From a virus (taxonomy: Duplodnaviria > Heunggongvirae > Uroviricota > Caudoviricetes): a DNA stretch of 27,380 nucleotides. The notes under the pieces are model-generated. The model was given only the letters and a program-made list of their open reading frames with translations, did not search any database and was not told where the DNA came from. Shown piece after piece: positions 1 to 25,231 of this stretch. The DNA is taken from IMG/VR virus record IMGVR_UViG_3300010280_000022, one strand, 5' to 3'. A program made the translations under genes and the position numbers. How positions within the stretch are numbered: position 1 is the first letter of the stretch; every line of letters starts with the position of its first letter.

Positions 1-2420
1 CATATATTATTTGCCGACCTATGTACATACGTATTTACTATCGGCTTAGATGAAGATGAACCCTTAGCTCTCGAACCATCGATAAGACAGTCAGACACTG
101 ACATAAATCCTGAAACAAGGTTGTTACTCACATCCCAATCTATGGCCATTTTGTCAAAATAAACACTGCCAAGCATATATGTTTTTCCACCAGAATAGCC
201 TACAAACCTACGTAATACACCACCATAATGCTTGATGTAACTCCTAGTCATTCCTGATGTGATATTCATATATACAATATCCATATTGCACTCAATTCCG
301 TAAAGGCAAGATGCATATTCTGATATGTGTCCAACATAACATACAACTTTACATCCAGTTGATTCAGATGGAGTCAATTTAATTACAGGAATATCTCTTG
401 TAGATGCATCATGATATGAAATTGCCAACTCAAATCTTGCGTCTTTACCATTAAAAGTGCTACCAGTAAAATCTATCAACGACGGCATTTTAAAGTCACG
501 CAAAGGTGATGGCTGTGTTTTAAAGTTATTTTTAAATGATAAAATATTGAGTGTTACCTCAGAAGGCCAGTATATATTCGTCTGTACAATTATATTCTTC
601 GGAAGATGTAAAGTGCGCGGCTGGACAGGGTTCCCGGACGCGATAACATTGTCTGAACGACACAAAATCATATCCACCAAACCGGATGAACCCTCTGGAA
701 TACGAACGGATCCCCCACGGACTATGAAATCACCTTTATGTTCACCGTAATCCGTACGTACTCCAAACGGCCCTATGTGAGAATTGATGATCTGTGTTGC
801 CTCGTCGAACGCCCCAGTACCAACCAAGACGCCGCCAGGTATCCGACAATTATCAACAAGAATCTTTGAGCACCCATAGTGCATGTGAAAGCTATCAATA
901 TTACTGTCTCTCACAACTACATCCCTGCAATAGTTGCCGTCAATAGACCTCCACCCCTTACCCACTTCGCAGCCGATAAAAGTATGTTTAAGGGTGTACT
1001 CCATAGCTACGGTATAACGAGAATTATTATCCGTCTGCGTAATACCCGCACTCGTTAATCTCCAGTTAACTCCGTAGGTGGTAGAGCTACCAAAAATATT
1101 AGAATCTGTAGCTGTCATCCCCATGTCATTAAAGTAAACAACCTCAACATCAACTAAAGAACGTTGGATATCAAAAGCATAGCGTGAAAATTGACCAGTG
1201 AAACGCGGCAATACAATTTTATTACGCTTAGTTGGTAGCTTAAATAACGTACAAGTTACGGGGTCGTTGTAAGTATTTTTAAGACTGTAAGCCAATTCCC
1301 CTGGCTTAGTCATAAAGTTCACTTCACCTTTATATCTTGGGCTGAATACACCACCAATCAACCTATAGAGATCAACCTCTGTTGGACTTATTATTTTGAC
1401 GAGCGAATTACCCCACCCTGCTAAATCCTCAACACAAGAAAAAACTGAGGTTAACTCGTTCAATGGGTATGTTGATATATTAACTTCCTTTATATAATTA
1501 TCATCATCCCTTTCATCTTTATACACAACCTTTCCGTTTGTTAAGTGGAAAGTACAATTACTCAAATCAAAATCACCATATAGATATGTTTCTTTATCTA
1601 TGGTGAAAGTTAGTGGCGCGCTTGAGTATATTTTTATTGGTGTATTTTTATACTTATAAAATATAGCATTAAGCTGATCACTATTCCGCTCACCGTCTAG
1701 TGCGCTTATATCATATATATATAATCTGTTTTCTAATCCACCAATTAACTTATACCCATCAGGTTTAGCTAATTCAATTAGAACGTCTGAGGCAGATCCA
1801 GATGGTGGTAATACGACAAATGGATTACCATCATTATCAAAAGCAACCATCTTGTTTGCTCTTTCAATAGCATCAGGTAAGGAAGGTATTGATTCAGGAA
1901 CACGAAGAGTTTTGCTTAGATTGCTACCAGCAAGCGTATCCACGTAATTTTTTGTTGCCGCATCCTGCGGAAATCTGGGATCTCTCAGGTTACGAATATA
2001 ATTGTTCAAAGCATCATAATAATTAGCAATAAATGATGGTTTACGCAGAGCCAACCTGAACCAACTTCTAACCTGCTGTATCAGCATCGTCAGTTTATCG
2101 AATGCGTCTTCATGCACCTCAGCGAAGAACTTACCCTGGTTGCGCAGATCGGTATCCTGCGTAACCGGTAGCTCTCTTGATATAGAAATCTGATAACCGT
2201 TAACCAACGCCTTCGACAGAATTACATTGCCGCCGTTATACCCTCCCGCACCAGTGACTATGTAATCAGTATCAAGAATCAGCTCTGTGATGTTCTCGTT
2301 CAGGTCAACAACCTGCACTACTAAATCAGATTTCTGGAAAATCCTGAAGGTATAAGGGAATGTCGTTGTAACACCGTTACCGGTGTATTCGTTGTGGTCA
2401 ACTTCGGTTGAGACCGTCAT
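1..2420 (-). CDS. Tailspike / tail fibre protein, 3'-truncated by window edge (at least 806 aa); T7 gp17-like N-terminal anchor domain plus AT-rich divergent C-terminal region
   Basis: Minus frame open from ATG at 2420 (GGAG 8 nt upstream) to position 1; absent from ORF track because no stop lies in the window. N-terminus MTVSTEVDHNEYTGNGVTTTFPYTFRIF..LVVQVVDL..DTDYIV fits the conserved podovirus tail-fibre N-terminal pattern. Confidence 0.8.
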   Translation of the reverse strand, partial: MTVSTEVDHNEYTGNGVTTTFPYTFRIFQKSDLVVQVVDLNENITELILDTDYIVTGAGGYNGGNVILSKALVNGYQISISRELPVTQDTDLRNQGKFFAEVHEDAFDKLTMLIQQVRSWFRLALRKPSFIANYYDALNNYIRNLRDPRFPQDAATKNYVDTLAGSNLSKTLRVPESIPSLPDAIERANKMVAFDNDGNPFVVLPPSGSASDVLIELAKPDGYKLIGGLENRLYIYDISALDGERNSDQLNAIFYKYKNTPIKIYSSAPLTFTIDKETYLYGDFDLSNCTFHLTNGKVVYKDERDDDNYIKEVNISTYPLNELTSVFSCVEDLAGWGNSLVKIISPTEVDLYRLIGGVFSPRYKGEVNFMTKPGELAYSLKNTYNDPVTCTLFKLPTKRNKIVLPRFTGQFSRYAFDIQRSLVDVEVVYFNDMGMTATDSNIFGSSTTYGVNWRLTSAGITQTDNNSRYTVAMEYTLKHTFIGCEVGKGWRSIDGNYCRDVVVRDSNIDSFHMHYGCSKILVDNCRIPGGVLVGTGAFDEATQIINSHIGPFGVRTDYGEHKGDFIVRGGSVRIPEGSSGLVDMILCRSDNVIASGNPVQPRTLHLPKNIIVQTNIYWPSEVTLNILSFKNNFKTQPSPLRDFKMPSLIDFTGSTFNGKDARFELAISYHDASTRDIPVIKLTPSESTGCKVVCYVGHISEYASCLYGIECNMDIVYMNITSGMTRSYIKHYGGVLRRFVGYSGGKTYMLGSVYFDKMAIDWDVSNNLVSGFMSVSDCLIDGSRAKGSSSSKPIVNTYVHRSANNI

Positions 2421-2524
2421 GTTAAATCTCCAGATAGTCGCAGCACCCGTTGCGCCGCATATCCGGTTATTCTATTACCTGAAAAACCATATATGGATAG
2501 ACAACCCATAAATACGAACAGATA

Positions 2525-2539
2525 TTACCTTTCAGGTGA
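2525..2539 (+). promoter_or_regulatory. Dyad motif site A: TTACC-TTTCA-GGTGA
   Basis: One of five intergenic copies of ATTACC-N5-GGTRA; lies between tailspike start and the LexA-box gene. Confidence 0.45.
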
Positions 2540-2578
2540 TTCGCAAAACGTGCTGGATAGCAAATAAATTATTTGATA

Positions 2579-2594
2579 CTGTATATTTATACAG
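2579..2594 (+). promoter_or_regulatory. LexA (SOS) box CTGTATATTTATACAG
   Basis: Exact CTGT-N8-ACAG with AT-rich core, flanks taCTGT..ACAGtt; preceded by TTGATA (2573-2578); 22 nt upstream of ATG at 2616. Confidence 0.75.
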
Positions 2595-2615
2595 TTATTG
2601 CATGGAGAAGATAAG

Positions 2616-2873
2616 ATGCAGCAGTATCACTATCCACTGGAAGACGGATTTACCGAAAGGATTCACACGCCGGGAGGCGTCAGATCACTGGTGGAGGGAT
2701 CGCACTTGATGAAATTACTCCGGGATCTCGATAAGGATGGATTTAATGTCGATGGCCCACTTGCCGAACTGACTGCACTGATTAACTACGTCACCAGCTC
2801 ACAGATGTCTATGCGGGATCTGCAAACACATCTCGACTATTGTGCCGAACAATTACGAAAACAAACCAGATAA
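2616..2873 (+). CDS. Small protein (85 aa) paralogous to the C-terminal domain of the adjacent antirepressor; candidate SOS-inducible antirepressor or modulator
   Basis: ORF-track frame 2598..2873 begins at TTG; in-frame ATG at 2616 has GGAG 8 nt upstream. Motifs P.GV..L.E.S.LM.LL..L..DG..V.G..AELT and LRD.QTH..Y are shared with residues ~150-231 of the 3189..3884 protein. Confidence 0.7.
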   Translation: MQQYHYPLEDGFTERIHTPGGVRSLVEGSHLMKLLRDLDKDGFNVDGPLAELTALINYVTSSQMSMRDLQTHLDYCAEQLRKQTR

Positions 2874-2904
2874 GGTTTGCAATTACCAAGTGGAGTGCTT
2901 ATAT

Positions 2905-2919
2905 TTACCTTTGCGGTAA
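2905..2919 (+). promoter_or_regulatory. Dyad motif site E: TTACC-TTTGC-GGTAA, nested in a longer inverted repeat
   Basis: Perfect TTACC/GGTAA arms; flanked by AAGTGGAGTGCT (2888-2899) and AGCACTCCTCTT (2928-2939), inverted with one mismatch. Confidence 0.45.
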
Positions 2920-3010
2920 ATTTACATAGCACTCCTCTTGTGCCATAGTAATCGGGCACTGGCAAAATCCAGTGCCGGGATTGGCGTCCCGGATTACTAA
3001 AAGGCGCATT

Positions 3011-3031
3011 CACCGCGCAAGCGGTTTTTTT
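3011..3031 (+). terminator. Rho-independent terminator between the small LexA-controlled gene and the antirepressor gene
   Basis: Stem ACCGC/GCGGT with GCAA loop followed by six T. Confidence 0.6.
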
Positions 3032-3188
3032 ATGCGTATAGCACGGCCACATTCGTATTATGGTGGGCTGTGTGGGGGCACCGAAAGGTGCGCCGGGTCC
3101 TTTTAGCCGGTTACGCCAACCCTGCACAGTTCACCACCAACCGATTGGCGTCGGTAGTGGTGATTAACCAGACTAAAAGGTAACCACT

Positions 3189-3884
3189 ATGACAGCTACA
3201 AAAAGCACGTCCATTTTTTCTTTCGAATCCCAAGCCGATATACGGGTAATCGTCATTAATGGTGAGCCATGGTTTATCGCTTCAGATGTTTGTCGGGCTA
3301 TAGGCATAGCAAACCATCGAGATGCTGTTCGAAAACTTGATGATGATGAGAAGGGCGTCGCTTCAACCGACACCCCTGGCGGTGAGCAAGAATCGATCAT
3401 CATCTCCGAGTCAGGCCTCTACACACTGATCCTCCGCTGCCGCGATGCGGTGACACCAGGCACTATCCCATACCGCTTTCGTAAATGGGTTACAGGTGAG
3501 GTTCTTCCTCAGATCCGCCGCACCGGAAGTTACATTAAAAACTCGCTCACGCAGGAAGAACGCATAAAGATGGTTGCCGACCAGGTAGCCAACGCCACGG
3601 CGTCAGCAGTGATGCAGGCGATGAAGATAGAGAACAAAACCTACAGTGCCCCACTGAAGCCCGGCTACCGCAGCCTGATTCATTCGCCGTCTGGTGTTCT
3701 CGGCCTGACGGAGAACTCACTGCTGATGAATTTGCTGAACCAGTTACAGGAAGACGGGCACGATGTATCGGGCGCGGCGGCGGAACTGACCACCATGTTC
3801 TGCTACATCGTCGGTGTGAGCAAATGCCTGCGTGATATCCAGACTCACGCGGAGTACATCAACGACAAAGCAGGATTCTTCTGA
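3189..3884 (+). CDS. Bro-N family phage antirepressor (231 aa)
   Basis: N-terminal IRVIVINGEPWFIASDVCRAIGI...LDDDEKGV is the Bro-N/antirepressor signature; AAAAGG upstream of ATG; long structured leader. Confidence 0.8.
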   Translation: MTATKSTSIFSFESQADIRVIVINGEPWFIASDVCRAIGIANHRDAVRKLDDDEKGVASTDTPGGEQESIIISESGLYTLILRCRDAVTPGTIPYRFRKWVTGEVLPQIRRTGSYIKNSLTQEERIKMVADQVANATASAVMQAMKIENKTYSAPLKPGYRSLIHSPSGVLGLTENSLLMNLLNQLQEDGHDVSGAAAELTTMFCYIVGVSKCLRDIQTHAEYINDKAGFF

Positions 3885-3958
3885 CAGAACGGCGGCACAG
3901 GGATGTGCCTTTAAATAATTCTGTACAGATTGCAGACTGGGGGGTGAATAGAGTACTA

Positions 3959-3973
3959 TTACCTTACGGGTGA
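3959..3973 (+). promoter_or_regulatory. Dyad motif site C: TTACC-TTACG-GGTGA
   Basis: Same ATTACCTT left arm as other sites; sits ~40 nt upstream of the mini-ORF and terminator that precede the membrane-protein gene. Confidence 0.4.
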
Positions 3974-4063
3974 TCCATAGCGATTAGGCACCGATACAGG
4001 AGGAGCCCACATGAGAAAATTTGACGAGTACGAAGGCGTTTAACATTCGGATAGTTTAATGAC

Positions 4064-4102: not shown

Positions 4103-4642
4103 GTGTTAAGTGAAGAAATGCAATTTGCCATGGCTGTGGCTCAAATCGTAAGTGCAGTCGCGGTTTCGCTTGGCTTGTTCATAGCTATCGCTACTATTAT
4201 TTATAATGTAAATACAGCGAGAAAAGTACACACTTCAGTATTCCTTGGTGAAAGCAGGTTTGATGTAGATTATAAGAAAGGCCTATCTACTATGCGCCGC
4301 ATTCACGAATCGAACAAATCATTCCGCTCTTATATGTATCCAAGCAATGGGCAGGCTGATCTTACGGATGAAGAAAAGATAGAGAAGAGAGAAATAATTT
4401 ACTGTCTAGGTTTCTACGAACGCATGGCTGTGAGCGTGAAGCGGAAAACTTATGATGAGACCATGATTAAGGAAGTATTTTACAGCTCCGTTGTAAATAA
4501 CTATCAGATTGCGCTACCTCTTATACAAGCTATTAGAGAAAAAGAAAACATAAACACATATTTTAAAGAATATGAATGGTTGGCCACACGATGGAAGGAT
4601 TGTCCATTGAAAGATAAATCCCCGTGGTACAAGTTTTGGTAA
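4103..4642 (+). CDS. AT-rich inner-membrane protein (179 aa; one N-terminal TM helix); candidate superinfection-exclusion/defence moron
   Basis: GTG start with GGAG 6 nt upstream (alternative ATG at 4118); hydrophobic segment FAMAVAQIVSAVAVSLGLFIAIATIIY; AT-rich codon usage unlike the flanking structural genes; strong terminator follows. Confidence 0.7.
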   Translation: MLSEEMQFAMAVAQIVSAVAVSLGLFIAIATIIYNVNTARKVHTSVFLGESRFDVDYKKGLSTMRRIHESNKSFRSYMYPSNGQADLTDEEKIEKREIIYCLGFYERMAVSVKRKTYDETMIKEVFYSSVVNNYQIALPLIQAIREKENINTYFKEYEWLATRWKDCPLKDKSPWYKFW

Positions 4643-4663
4643 GCCCGCGACGCGGGCTTTTTT
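4643..4663 (+). terminator. Rho-independent terminator after the membrane-protein gene
   Basis: GCCCGCG..CGCGGGC hairpin immediately after TAA, followed by six T. Confidence 0.7.
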
Positions 4664-4735
4664 GTGGACGAAACAAAAGTCAGTGCTACACTCATTGACG
4701 CCACATTGAGGTGGCTTATAGATGGAAATTTCACA

Positions 4736-4897
4736 ATGAAAAAAGCATTTGCTGCACTGTTCGTTTTGTTGTCTCTGGTAGCTTCAACTCAGGCCTTTGC
4801 CGGTCGTTGTCAGCACGACAGCGATACTGCCGCTGACGGCTCCCGCTGCGGTGGGCGTTCTGCGGATTCCCGCCCGGGCGGCGGTGGCATTCGTTAA
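4736..4897 (+). CDS. Small secreted peptide (53 aa; signal peptide plus ~31-aa Gly/Arg/Asp-rich mature part with 2 Cys)
   Basis: MKKAFAALFVLLSLVASTQAFA is a typical Sec signal with AXA site; upstream TTGACG (4695-4700), 16-bp spacer, TATAGA. ORF-track N-terminal extension from 4664 rejected. Confidence 0.5.
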   Translation: MKKAFAALFVLLSLVASTQAFAGRCQHDSDTAADGSRCGGRSADSRPGGGGIR

Positions 4898-4919
4898 AAA
4901 CAAGGCCGCGAAAGCGGCC
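4891..4919 (-). terminator. Terminator at the end of the minus-strand late operon
   Basis: Hairpin GGCCGC-GAAA-GCGGCC (4904-4919); on the minus strand it is followed by TTGTTTTTAACGA. Confidence 0.6.
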
Positions 4920-4933
4920 TGTGACATGTCACA

Positions 4934-5494
4934 CTACATTGATATATGATTCATAAAGTAGCTTAAAGATTTACTTCCCAGAAAAGAAATTTCTTTTCCT
5001 GGATATGTCGCAATAATTGAGCATGACTTATCCCCGTTAGAGGTAACAAATCCTGAATAACCTACTTGTTCTTTACCATTTTGTTGCTTGGCTAAAAAGT
5101 AGAGGTAGCTTATCTTTTTGCCCTCTGGGTAAAACTCTGCCAAACCAGTATCGGTGATTGAATATTTTATTCTCCCGCCTTGAGTAACGTTTTCCATCTC
5201 AAGTTTAGCTATGTCTTTTCTGTTGTATTCAGCATTGATTTTCCTTTCGAAATCAATGTTGTTTTCAAATGAGTAGGAAGCAACAGTCTGAATAGATGGG
5301 AACACGTTTATCTGGATGCCTCCACAGTCGGCACAGGTATAAAGGTATGAATCAGATGGAATCCCCATAAAAGAAAACTGAGTTACCTTAAATTTATCGC
5401 TATCTCCAAAGTATTGAAGTTCGCATTTAACATTTTGCCCTGCAAAAGAAAATGCAGACATCAATATTGAAACAAAAAATATAATTGCCTTCAT
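4934..5494 (-). CDS. AT-rich secreted/periplasmic protein (186 aa), last gene of the late operon; function unknown
   Basis: Signal peptide MKAIIFFVSILMSAFSFA; four Cys; ATG 3 nt after the stop of the upstream 850-aa gene; composition much more AT-rich than the core genes. Confidence 0.7.
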   Translation of the reverse strand: MKAIIFFVSILMSAFSFAGQNVKCELQYFGDSDKFKVTQFSFMGIPSDSYLYTCADCGGIQINVFPSIQTVASYSFENNIDFERKINAEYNRKDIAKLEMENVTQGGRIKYSITDTGLAEFYPEGKKISYLYFLAKQQNGKEQVGYSGFVTSNGDKSCSIIATYPGKEISFLGSKSLSYFMNHISM

Positions 5495-22009: not shown

Positions 22010-22086
22010 GTGGCATTAGCTCAGTCGGACAGAGCAACCGCCTTCTAAGCGGTTGGTCGCAGGTTCGAATCCTGCATGCCACGCCA
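22010..22086 (+). tRNA. tRNA-Arg (anticodon UCU, reads AGA), phage-type
   Basis: Acceptor stem GTGGCAT/ATGCCAC, D-arm AGCTCAGTCGGACAGAGC, anticodon loop CTTCTAA, T-arm GCAGGTTCGAATCCTGC, discriminator G plus CCA. Confidence 0.85.
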
Positions 22087-22249
22087 GAATCACGCCTAAG
22101 GACCGTGATGCCAGAAGTTCCAGGTGCTTGGCGGTGATGGTTTCCCTTGAAGAACTATCACCGCCCTTTTTACAGCAGGACGCCATTGCGATGACTTCAT
22201 GCTGTAAACCAGTACAGCCACGGAAGGCATAACTCATTGCTTCCAGTTC

Positions 22250-24599: not shown

Positions 24600-25192
24600 T
24601 GATTACCATCCTGACGTTCTTTGAGTCGCTTCCTGGCTGCTGCTATGCGATCAGCAATTGTCACATTCACATTAACATCCAGACGTTCTTTGAACGCGTT
24701 GACATCAACATGCTTACCAATCAGCTCAAGGTTCTTCACCTTGTCAGGCCATTTAATTTTTTTGAGGATTGTCTCTATCGAATCCTCGTTCATGTTCATG
24801 ATGGTCGATGACAGATCAAAGCCACTAAGCGTAGTGCGCCAGATTTTCGGCCACTCACGGATTGGTTTAAGGCTCCCATCGTCGTTGAGGATGTCGATCA
24901 CGTCCATCTGGTCGATCTCCACCAGGCGCATGAGAACGTAATCAGCACTGACGCGCATTCGTTTGTTGCGCTCCTCCATCAACTCGGCAATCCGTTTTTG
25001 AATGCGTTCATCGCGCATCATGACACTGGCTTTAACTGCCGCTGTATTTGGGGAGAATCCTGCGTTAATCGCTGCCTGAGTCTGGTTTTCAGGCGTTTTG
25101 ATGTATGACTGGCAATAAGCCTCCTGCATTGCTGTGAGCGGCTTAAATTGCGTTGATTTGCGTTTATAGGTTTTAGGTTCAGCAGGCATCAT
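24596..25192 (-). CDS. terS: Terminase small subunit (198 aa)
   Basis: ...LELIGKHVDVNAFKE... is a terminase small-subunit type signature; start moved to ATG at 25192 because the first 26 residues of the ORF-track call are a Thr/Ile-rich read-through. Confidence 0.65.
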   Translation of the reverse strand: MMPAEPKTYKRKSTQFKPLTAMQEAYCQSYIKTPENQTQAAINAGFSPNTAAVKASVMMRDERIQKRIAELMEERNKRMRVSADYVLMRLVEIDQMDVIDILNDDGSLKPIREWPKIWRTTLSGFDLSSTIMNMNEDSIETILKKIKWPDKVKNLELIGKHVDVNAFKERLDVNVNVTIADRIAAARKRLKERQDGNQ

Positions 25193-25201
25193 AACCACCG
25201 T

Positions 25202-25231
25202 GGTAATAGTTACCGTTGTGGTAATAGTACC
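25202..25231 (-). repeat. Tandem palindromic repeats GGTAATAGT(T)ACC x2 in the terS leader
   Basis: Copies at 25202-25214 and 25220-25231, 10-40 nt upstream of the terS start. Confidence 0.5.

Follow-up and report, generated by a model that had tools for sequence, protein, structure and literature searches.

A predicted LexA-controlled antirepressor gene next to a C4/IsrK-type RNA module in an epsilon15/phiV10-like phage of Escherichia coli

Does a LexA box directly in front of a small antirepressor gene mark an SOS-responsive induction switch and, if so, on which repressor would it act and which known system does it most resemble? We addressed this for a viral stretch of 27,380 nucleotides (the window), in which the first-pass annotation had read the box and an 85-aa gene as an SOS-triggered module that could act in trans on a repressor encoded elsewhere. 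That interpretation is supported: judged by homology and gene context, the locus is very probably an SOS-responsive induction switch, orthologous to the Ant-Rep-LexA system of phage SPC32H. In this phage genus the LexA-Ant-Rep switch is already known, with genetic and biochemical descriptions and a crystal structure of Ant bound to its repressor. Kim & Ryu (2013, J Virol 87:11775) reportedly described the Ant-Rep-LexA antirepression system of SPC32H, and the SPC32H Ant-Rep system is said to be the subject of Kim et al. (2016, PNAS 113:E2480), with the structures PDB 5D4Z and 5D50. The more interesting feature of the region, itself of a known kind, is a second antirepressor gene gated by C4- and IsrK-type RNAs.

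The LexA box and the small antirepressor gene

A megablast search with positions 2400-4000 returned Escherichia phages TL-2011b, vB_EcoP_ZX5 and phiV10, all Uetakevirus, at 96-98% identity and 93-98% query coverage. By its sequence, the window comes from an epsilon15/phiV10-like temperate podophage (Uetakevirus) of E. coli. It opens with an incomplete tail-fibre gene, read from the minus strand with its start codon at 2421, followed by the ant locus and then by virion and terminase genes, also on the minus strand. Of 5,426 complete E. coli genomes, 247 contain the 1.6 kb of the megablast query at ≥80% coverage. RefSeq E. coli genomes list the product of the small ant gene as 'hypothetical protein'; a correct annotation would mark the carrier prophages as SOS-inducible via an antirepressor.

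For comparison we used 95 loci with a homologue of the 85-aa gene, drawn from phage records, GTDB genomes and IMG/VR contigs. The GTDB genome scan gave only 6 loci and the IMG/VR scan 80; nearly all of the IMG/VR loci have an Ant that is 98-100% identical, so they are useful for the flanks and add little protein diversity. Nine phages of Escherichia, Salmonella, Enterobacter and Klebsiella were also aligned. The features upstream of and including the small gene are as follows:

2554-2559, plus strand: putative -35 hexamer of the ant promoter, TGGATA, 17 bp upstream of TACTGT; identical in 90/94 loci
2577-2582, plus strand: TACTGT, putative -10 hexamer of the ant promoter and at once the left LexA-box arm; identical in 90/94 loci
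2577-2596, no strand assigned: predicted LexA (SOS) box, TACTGTATATTTATACAGTT; 18/20 matches to the consensus, unique in the window
2604-2607, plus strand: Shine-Dalgarno of ant, GGAG, well spaced at 8 nt before the ATG; invariant in the nine-phage alignment
2616-2873, plus strand: ant, an 85-aa antirepressor, orthologue of SPC32H Ant (5D50_E, SPC32H_020, PHROG 450)

The SOS box claimed at 2579-2594 was confirmed, the core there being exactly CTGTATATTTATACAG, which fits CTGT-N8-ACAG; 21 nt separate the box from the ATG at 2616. As a 20-mer, TACTGTATATTTATACAGTT agrees with the E. coli LexA consensus TACTGTATATATATACAGTA at 18 of 20 positions; the runner-up on the two strands of the window has 14, and a binomial estimate puts the chance expectation of ≥18/20 over 2 x 27 kb at about 1e-4. 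The looser CTGT-N8-ACAG pattern occurs three times in the window (0.32 expected), and the two other sites (17660 and 22202) have G+C-rich centres. The latter, CTGTAAACCAGTACAG at 22202-22217, lies ~115 nt downstream of a tRNA-Arg gene (anticodon TCT, 22010-22086) embedded in the structural region; its centre contains G+C, and it is probably a chance occurrence.

The box is conserved well beyond the near-identical phages. CTGT-N8-ACAG stands 37-40 nt upstream of the ant ATG in 89 of the 95 loci, and the loci with a conserved box come from Escherichia, Salmonella, Citrobacter, Enterobacter, Erwinia, Pseudocitrobacter and Scandinavium. Across the 95-locus set the arms are invariant and the central octamer takes 13 variants, as one would expect if the constrained contacts are those in the arms. 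In the nine-phage alignment the box falls in the same column in six phages, and its position is the same in SPC32H, epsilon15, phiV10, Tyrion and BUCT554. The left arm reads ATGT instead of CTGT in four loci, those of three Klebsiella phages in the alignment and of Superficieibacter; given this arm, LexA control may be weakened in some relatives.

The box had also been said to overlap the ant promoter region, and this holds for a near-consensus, conserved site whose left arm, TACTGT, doubles as the putative -10 hexamer. The matching -35, TGGATA, overlaps the invariant block CTGGA of the nine-phage alignment. Because the arrangement TGGATA-17-TACTGT is conserved and TACTGT is the annotated -10 of the phage 186 promoter p95, we infer that ant transcription starts near 2589 and that LexA would repress it by occluding the -10 region. 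A simple consensus promoter scan of the window reported no promoter over the LexA box. A second candidate for the ant promoter, TTGATA-17-TATTGC, was rejected: transcription would start inside the Shine-Dalgarno, and its -10 is not conserved.

The gene at 2616 was itself upheld, with an ORF at 2616-2873 that encodes 85 aa and has GGAG upstream. This is likely the true start, since the crystallised SPC32H Ant has 86 aa. In the equivalent of 2378-2873, many gene predictions begin at an ATG further upstream and give an ORF of 110-127 aa that crosses the Rep operator, the promoter and the LexA box, as in one IMG/VR contig (2378-2758).

The product is, as proposed, an antirepressor-domain protein. 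With phmmer it matched PDB 5D50_E, 'Anti-repressor protein', at E 1.4e-46 (residues 2-84 against 3-85), and by tblastn it is 86.7% identical to SPC32H_020, which is annotated 'ant'; it also matches PHROG 450 (E 7e-48). A Pfam search of the 85-aa protein gave no family above threshold and no Bro-N; a sub-threshold match to DUF724 was taken as noise. The first-pass annotation had described the gene as encoding only the C-terminal domain of a Bro-N antirepressor. The homology in that description stands: aligned with residues 150-223 of the neighbouring Bro-N protein, the 85-aa protein shows 43% identity (E 1e-16), and 23 positions are invariant across the stand-alone and fused forms. The truncation does not, the crystallised form being a complete Ant of 86 aa. 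On sequence, the 85-aa protein is a complete, autonomous Ant and no fragment, and its 231-aa neighbour reads as a derived form that joins Bro-N to an Ant-like domain.

The family is narrowly distributed. A tblastn search of 50,697 phage records with the 85-aa protein (Ant85) found only Uetakevirus-type phages and related Klebsiella prophages, and the same search detected no relation to GfoA, GfhA or Fels-2 Tum. BLASTP against 186 Tum gave no significant similarity (16.9 bits, E 0.056 in a single pairwise comparison, 14/47 identities). By these comparisons Ant85 belongs to the SPC32H Ant family; it appears Tum-like in its working and lies outside the Tum family.

The Rep repressor and its putative operators

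The target repressor had been expected to be encoded elsewhere, which agrees with what we found: SPC32H Rep had no tblastn match in the window, and Rep is present in the near-identical phages ZX5, TL-2011b and phiV10 (96-98% identical to the window across the locus). A Rep homologue is present in 36 phage records and an Ant homologue in 35, and the two sets essentially coincide. The Rep of ZX5 (QTH80031, 194 aa) has helix-turn-helix (HTH) domains only and no peptidase S24 domain; the lack of a self-cleavage domain explains the need for an antirepressor.

The Rep proteins of the E. coli phages are 42-43% identical to SPC32H Rep, compared with ~87% for Ant, and the operator-like palindromes look alike. 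The antirepressor is thus far more conserved than its presumed target (ZX5 Rep, 1201-1785, versus SPC32H Rep, 33739-34335). Because of this difference, the Ant-Rep contact in the window's phage is an extrapolation from SPC32H across a diverged partner.

We take the palindrome TTACC-N5-GGTAA as the putative Rep operator. In ZX5, the intergenic region shared by rep and its divergent neighbour cro holds three palindromes of this type. In the window the motif, with ≤1 mismatch, occurs eight times against 0.43 expected, an excess of about 19-fold. The copies are at 2525, 2905, 3959, 21673, 22290, 25192 and 25210, with a further one at 5118 inside a gene; most are intergenic, and two of them stand next to the promoters of ant and of the RNA module:

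2525-2539, no strand assigned: Rep-operator-like palindrome TTACCTTTCAGGTGA in the intergenic stretch that separates ant from the tail-fibre gene, with the LexA box 38 bp downstream of it
2905-2919, no strand assigned: perfect Rep-operator-like palindrome TTACCTTTGCGGTAA; it separates the RNA module's two promoters and abuts the -35 TTTACA

The block with the first palindrome is kept in all nine aligned phages, and the epsilon15 record annotates the equivalent site as 'protein_bind repressor, lysogeny'. At the second, ATTACC-N5-GGTAA abuts TTTACA in 6/6 divergent loci. From their sequence and placement, the window palindromes are probably Rep operators. Of the remaining copies, one (3959-3973) lies between the Bro-N ant stop codon and a gene for a DUF4760 protein, and a tandem pair (25192-25224) lies just after a terminator and directly upstream of the probable start of the terminase small subunit (ATG ~25189, minus strand). 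This placement suggests direct control by Rep of the late operon and of several accessory genes.

The RNA module and second antirepressor downstream of ant

The first reading had passed over the 315 bp that separate the small ant from the Bro-N gene. They hold an IsrK-like RNA and a C4 RNA:

2877-2905, plus strand: promoter-like site TTGCAA-17-TATATT right after the ant stop codon, from a promoter scan
2921-2949, plus strand: predicted promoter of the IsrK-like RNA, TTTACA-17-CATAGT preceded by TG, kept across genera
2956-3031, plus strand: IsrK-like RNA, Rfam RF01394, 77.9 bits (gathering score 50), model matched end to end
2981-2987 (b1) and 2997-3004 (a1), plus strand: C4 target copies in the IsrK-like RNA, from complementarity to the C4 loops
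3012-3031, plus strand: predicted intrinsic terminator of the IsrK-like RNA
3056-3141, plus strand: C4-type antisense RNA whose loop a' spans 3099-3106 and loop b' 3113-3119; Rfam RF01695, 77.7 bits (gathering score 45)
3145-3151 (b2, TTGGCGT) and 3173-3180 (a2, CTAAAAGG), plus strand: C4 targets, a2 covering the Shine-Dalgarno of the Bro-N ant gene (ATG 3189)
3189-3884, plus strand: Bro-N::Ant antirepressor, 231 aa, with Bro-N at residues 17-107 and an Ant-like domain at residues about 150-226

By these matches, positions 2874-3884 form a complete module of the P1 immI/Gifsy-1 isrK type, a kind already known. An equivalent of the first promoter, TTGnAA-17-TAnnAT, can be read by eye in the Tyrion, Citrobacter, Erwinia and Superficieibacter loci. 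The start predicted for the second promoter, ~7 nt downstream of CATAGT, is position 1 of the Rfam isrK match, 2956. The c4-a1b1 family RF03163 was also matched, at 45.1 bits, just below its gathering score of 46.7. The C4 fold was predicted with an MFE of -45.6 kcal/mol, and its loops, CCTTTTAG and ACGCCAA, show exact 8-nt and 7-nt complementarity to both a1/b1 and a2/b2.

Comparison across related loci indicates that this pairing is maintained. The 81 related loci reduced to 40 distinct module sequences, with four types of a' and four of b' in at least nine combinations. Complementarity between loop and target is kept in 40/40 distinct sequences, and both target copies co-vary with the loops. 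The diversity of loops and targets is present even among prophages with a small Ant that is 98-100% identical.

The 231-aa protein matches Pfam Bro-N (PF02498, E 2e-21) and 5D50_E (E 1e-13), together with PHROG 130, 'anti-repressor Ant', and PHROG 450 over residues 148-229. Its gene is adjacent to the small ant gene in 80/95 loci; SPC32H, epsilon15 and BUCT554 have ant alone, without the RNA module.

A 35-aa ORF (3060-3167) lies over the C4 RNA gene and stops 21 nt short of the Bro-N ant start codon; the ZX5 record calls its equivalent 'ash family protein'. Either the RNA gene has been translated spuriously here, or the ORF is a counterpart of Gifsy-1 orf45.

In about 29 loci, ~1/3 of the related E. 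coli prophages, an insertion of 0.8-1.1 kb separates ant from the IsrK module (2758-3670 in one IMG/VR contig, for example). The insertion carries a convergent gene for a 242-aa protein with a Cys-rich C-terminus and an N-terminal membrane segment, and a strong, G+C-rich hairpin.

Beyond the module, the accessory region 4103-5494, between the Bro-N ant and the virion genes, contains the DUF4760 protein gene (4103-4642), a 77-aa ORF (4664-4897) with a hydrophobic, signal-peptide-like stretch and a gene for a 186-aa minus-strand protein (PHROG 11983). These genes are absent from phiV10 and SPC32H at this place. PADLOC gave zero matches for the five proteins between 2616 and 5494.

Proposed mechanism, competing readings and precedents

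The preferred reading is as follows. In a lysogen, host LexA would occupy the box, whose left arm is the likely -10 hexamer, and ant would be silent. After DNA damage, RecA would become active, LexA would cleave itself and the gene for the 85-aa Ant would be transcribed. Ant would then bind Rep, a repressor that lacks a self-cleavage domain and whose gene lies outside the window, and the DNA-binding Rep tetramer would be dismantled; this would free the TTACC-N5-GGTAA operators and allow lytic growth. The IsrK-like RNA, the C4 antisense RNA and the Bro-N::Ant fusion would form a separate second layer downstream. This module probably supplies a second antirepressor that is held off by C4 at the level of translation and by Rep at the level of transcription. 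The pairing of the switch with a diversified, C4/IsrK-gated second antirepressor bears on cross-induction and heteroimmunity among co-resident prophages.

The two layers might instead be coupled, with the SOS signal passing through RNA: transcripts from the ant promoter would reach the IsrK terminator (3031) or run beyond it, act as a decoy for C4 and switch on Bro-N::Ant. In the window, nothing terminator-like lies on the plus strand from the ant stop codon (2873) to 3012, and the same is true of 52/52 loci in which IsrK starts 79-82 nt after ant. The a1/b1 copies that these transcripts would carry are exactly complementary to the C4 loops, and in Gifsy-1 the short IsrK, which is complementary to the C4-like RNA STnc1160, activates translation of the downstream antirepressor in trans (PMC4825925). 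However, the RNA module has its own conserved promoters, the convergent 242-aa gene and the G+C-rich hairpin intervene between ant and IsrK in about 29 loci, and the module is wholly missing from SPC32H and epsilon15; a strong hairpin specific to the window (~2889-2937) may also stop part of the transcripts. The loci with the insertion and the phages without the module show that the two units are separable and that read-through is no required design, and we consider this coupling unlikely. A particular form of it starts from the IsrK start lying 82 nt after the ant stop codon: an SOS-induced ant mRNA with IsrK and a1/b1 at its 3' end would titrate C4, giving a two-stage relay of Ant and then of a Bro-N::Ant gated both by RNA and by a Rep operator, a fusion that shares the Rep-binding fold. 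This is a long shot; if true, the relay could lock induction in or carry it over to heteroimmune relatives.

It would also be conceivable that Ant85 acts mainly on the Bro-N::Ant protein and not on Rep, with mixed oligomers that activate or poison the larger protein. The shared Ant domain (43% identity, 23 invariant positions), the neighbouring genes in 80/95 loci and the tetramer that SPC32H Ant is described as forming (PMC9638917) would all be in keeping with this. We nevertheless judge it very improbable: the SPC32H orthologue is a Rep-binding antirepressor in a phage without a Bro-N ant gene, and Ant85 occurs with Rep in every phage record, whereas it occurs with the Bro-N ant in some only.

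That the palindrome is no working LexA site, being an A+T-rich promoter palindrome or a site of the divergent tail-fibre gene, and that Rep alone controls ant, is scarcely credible: a Rep-operator-like palindrome does lie 38 bp upstream, the box is known here from its sequence and its left arm is degenerate in four relatives, but it has 18/20 consensus matches against a background maximum of 14, invariant arms around a freely variable centre, near-identity to the annotated LexA site of 186 p95 and an orthologue in SPC32H for which reviews cite SOS/LexA control, and the tail-fibre start codon is ~160 bp away.

The preferred reading, a LexA-controlled Ant acting on Rep, follows what has been described for SPC32H, whose Ant is a characterised LexA-repressed antirepressor that takes apart the non-cleavable repressor Rep. 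One review gives the order as LexA cleavage, Ant synthesis and inhibition of the repressor by protein-protein contact (PMC7380047), and a second source identifies the tetramerisation domain of Rep as its Ant-binding domain (PMC9986798). The window's phage and SPC32H share the genus Uetakevirus, the antisense position of ant between the last virion gene and the tailspike/tail-fibre gene, an Ant that is ~87% identical, a Rep-operator-like palindrome upstream, a Rep homologue (here in the near-identical phages) and a LexA box at a matching distance from the ATG (37 nt in the window, 40 nt in SPC32H). They differ in host (E. coli versus Salmonella), in Rep, which is only 42-43% identical, in the box octamer (ATATTTAT in the window, ATGTTTAT in SPC32H) and in the IsrK/C4/Bro-N ant module, which follows ant in the window and is lacking in SPC32H.

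The precedents first proposed for the locus, 186 Tum and the Gifsy prophages, gave way to this orthologous Ant/Rep/LexA switch of the same genus as the closest one. The logic of 186 is the same: a small antirepressor gene has a LexA box across its -10 region, and the repressor, 186 CI, is not cleaved. In the 186 p95 (tum) promoter the annotated -10, TACTGT, is the left box arm, as we infer for ant, and the LexA site TACTGTATGTTTATACAGTA differs from the 20-mer of the window at two positions. In contrast, Tum has no significant sequence similarity to Ant85, is a 146-aa protein with a DinI-like part and belongs to a P2-like myovirus. GfoA and GfhA of the Gifsy prophages and Tum of Fels-2 are LexA-repressed antirepressors of non-cleavable repressors, and other prophages can be their targets in trans (Lemire et al. 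2011, PMC3121763).

For the downstream module, two known loci are relevant. One is the immI region of P1 and P7.

P1/P7 immI comprises the c4 antisense RNA, icd and ant, with different specificity types in P1 and P7 and a repressor operator at the promoter. Like it, the window has a C4 RNA (RF01695) between upstream a1/b1 and downstream a2/b2 targets, with a2 on the ribosome-binding site before the antirepressor gene, several specificity types in which loops and targets co-vary, and a repressor operator (operator-like here) at the promoter. Unlike immI, the window module has no icd, and C4 would pair directly over the ant Shine-Dalgarno; the antirepressor is a fusion of Bro-N to the SPC32H-Ant domain, and the IsrK terminator lies between a1/b1 and C4.

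The other is the isrK-orf45-anrP locus of Gifsy-1, in which the C4-like RNA is STnc1160 (Hershko-Shalev et al. 2016, PMC4825925). Both have a terminator, then a C4-like RNA, then the antirepressor gene, and in both a short RNA is complementary to the downstream RNA. The locus of the window differs in its small ORF over C4, which has 35 aa and ends 21 nt before ant, and orf45-like translational coupling of this ORF is uncertain. About 140 records of Stx1/Stx2-converting phages match only the IsrK/C4 part of the window (2962-3164), at ~81% identity and mostly in unannotated regions, so that the same RNA module is widespread in Shiga-toxin phages.
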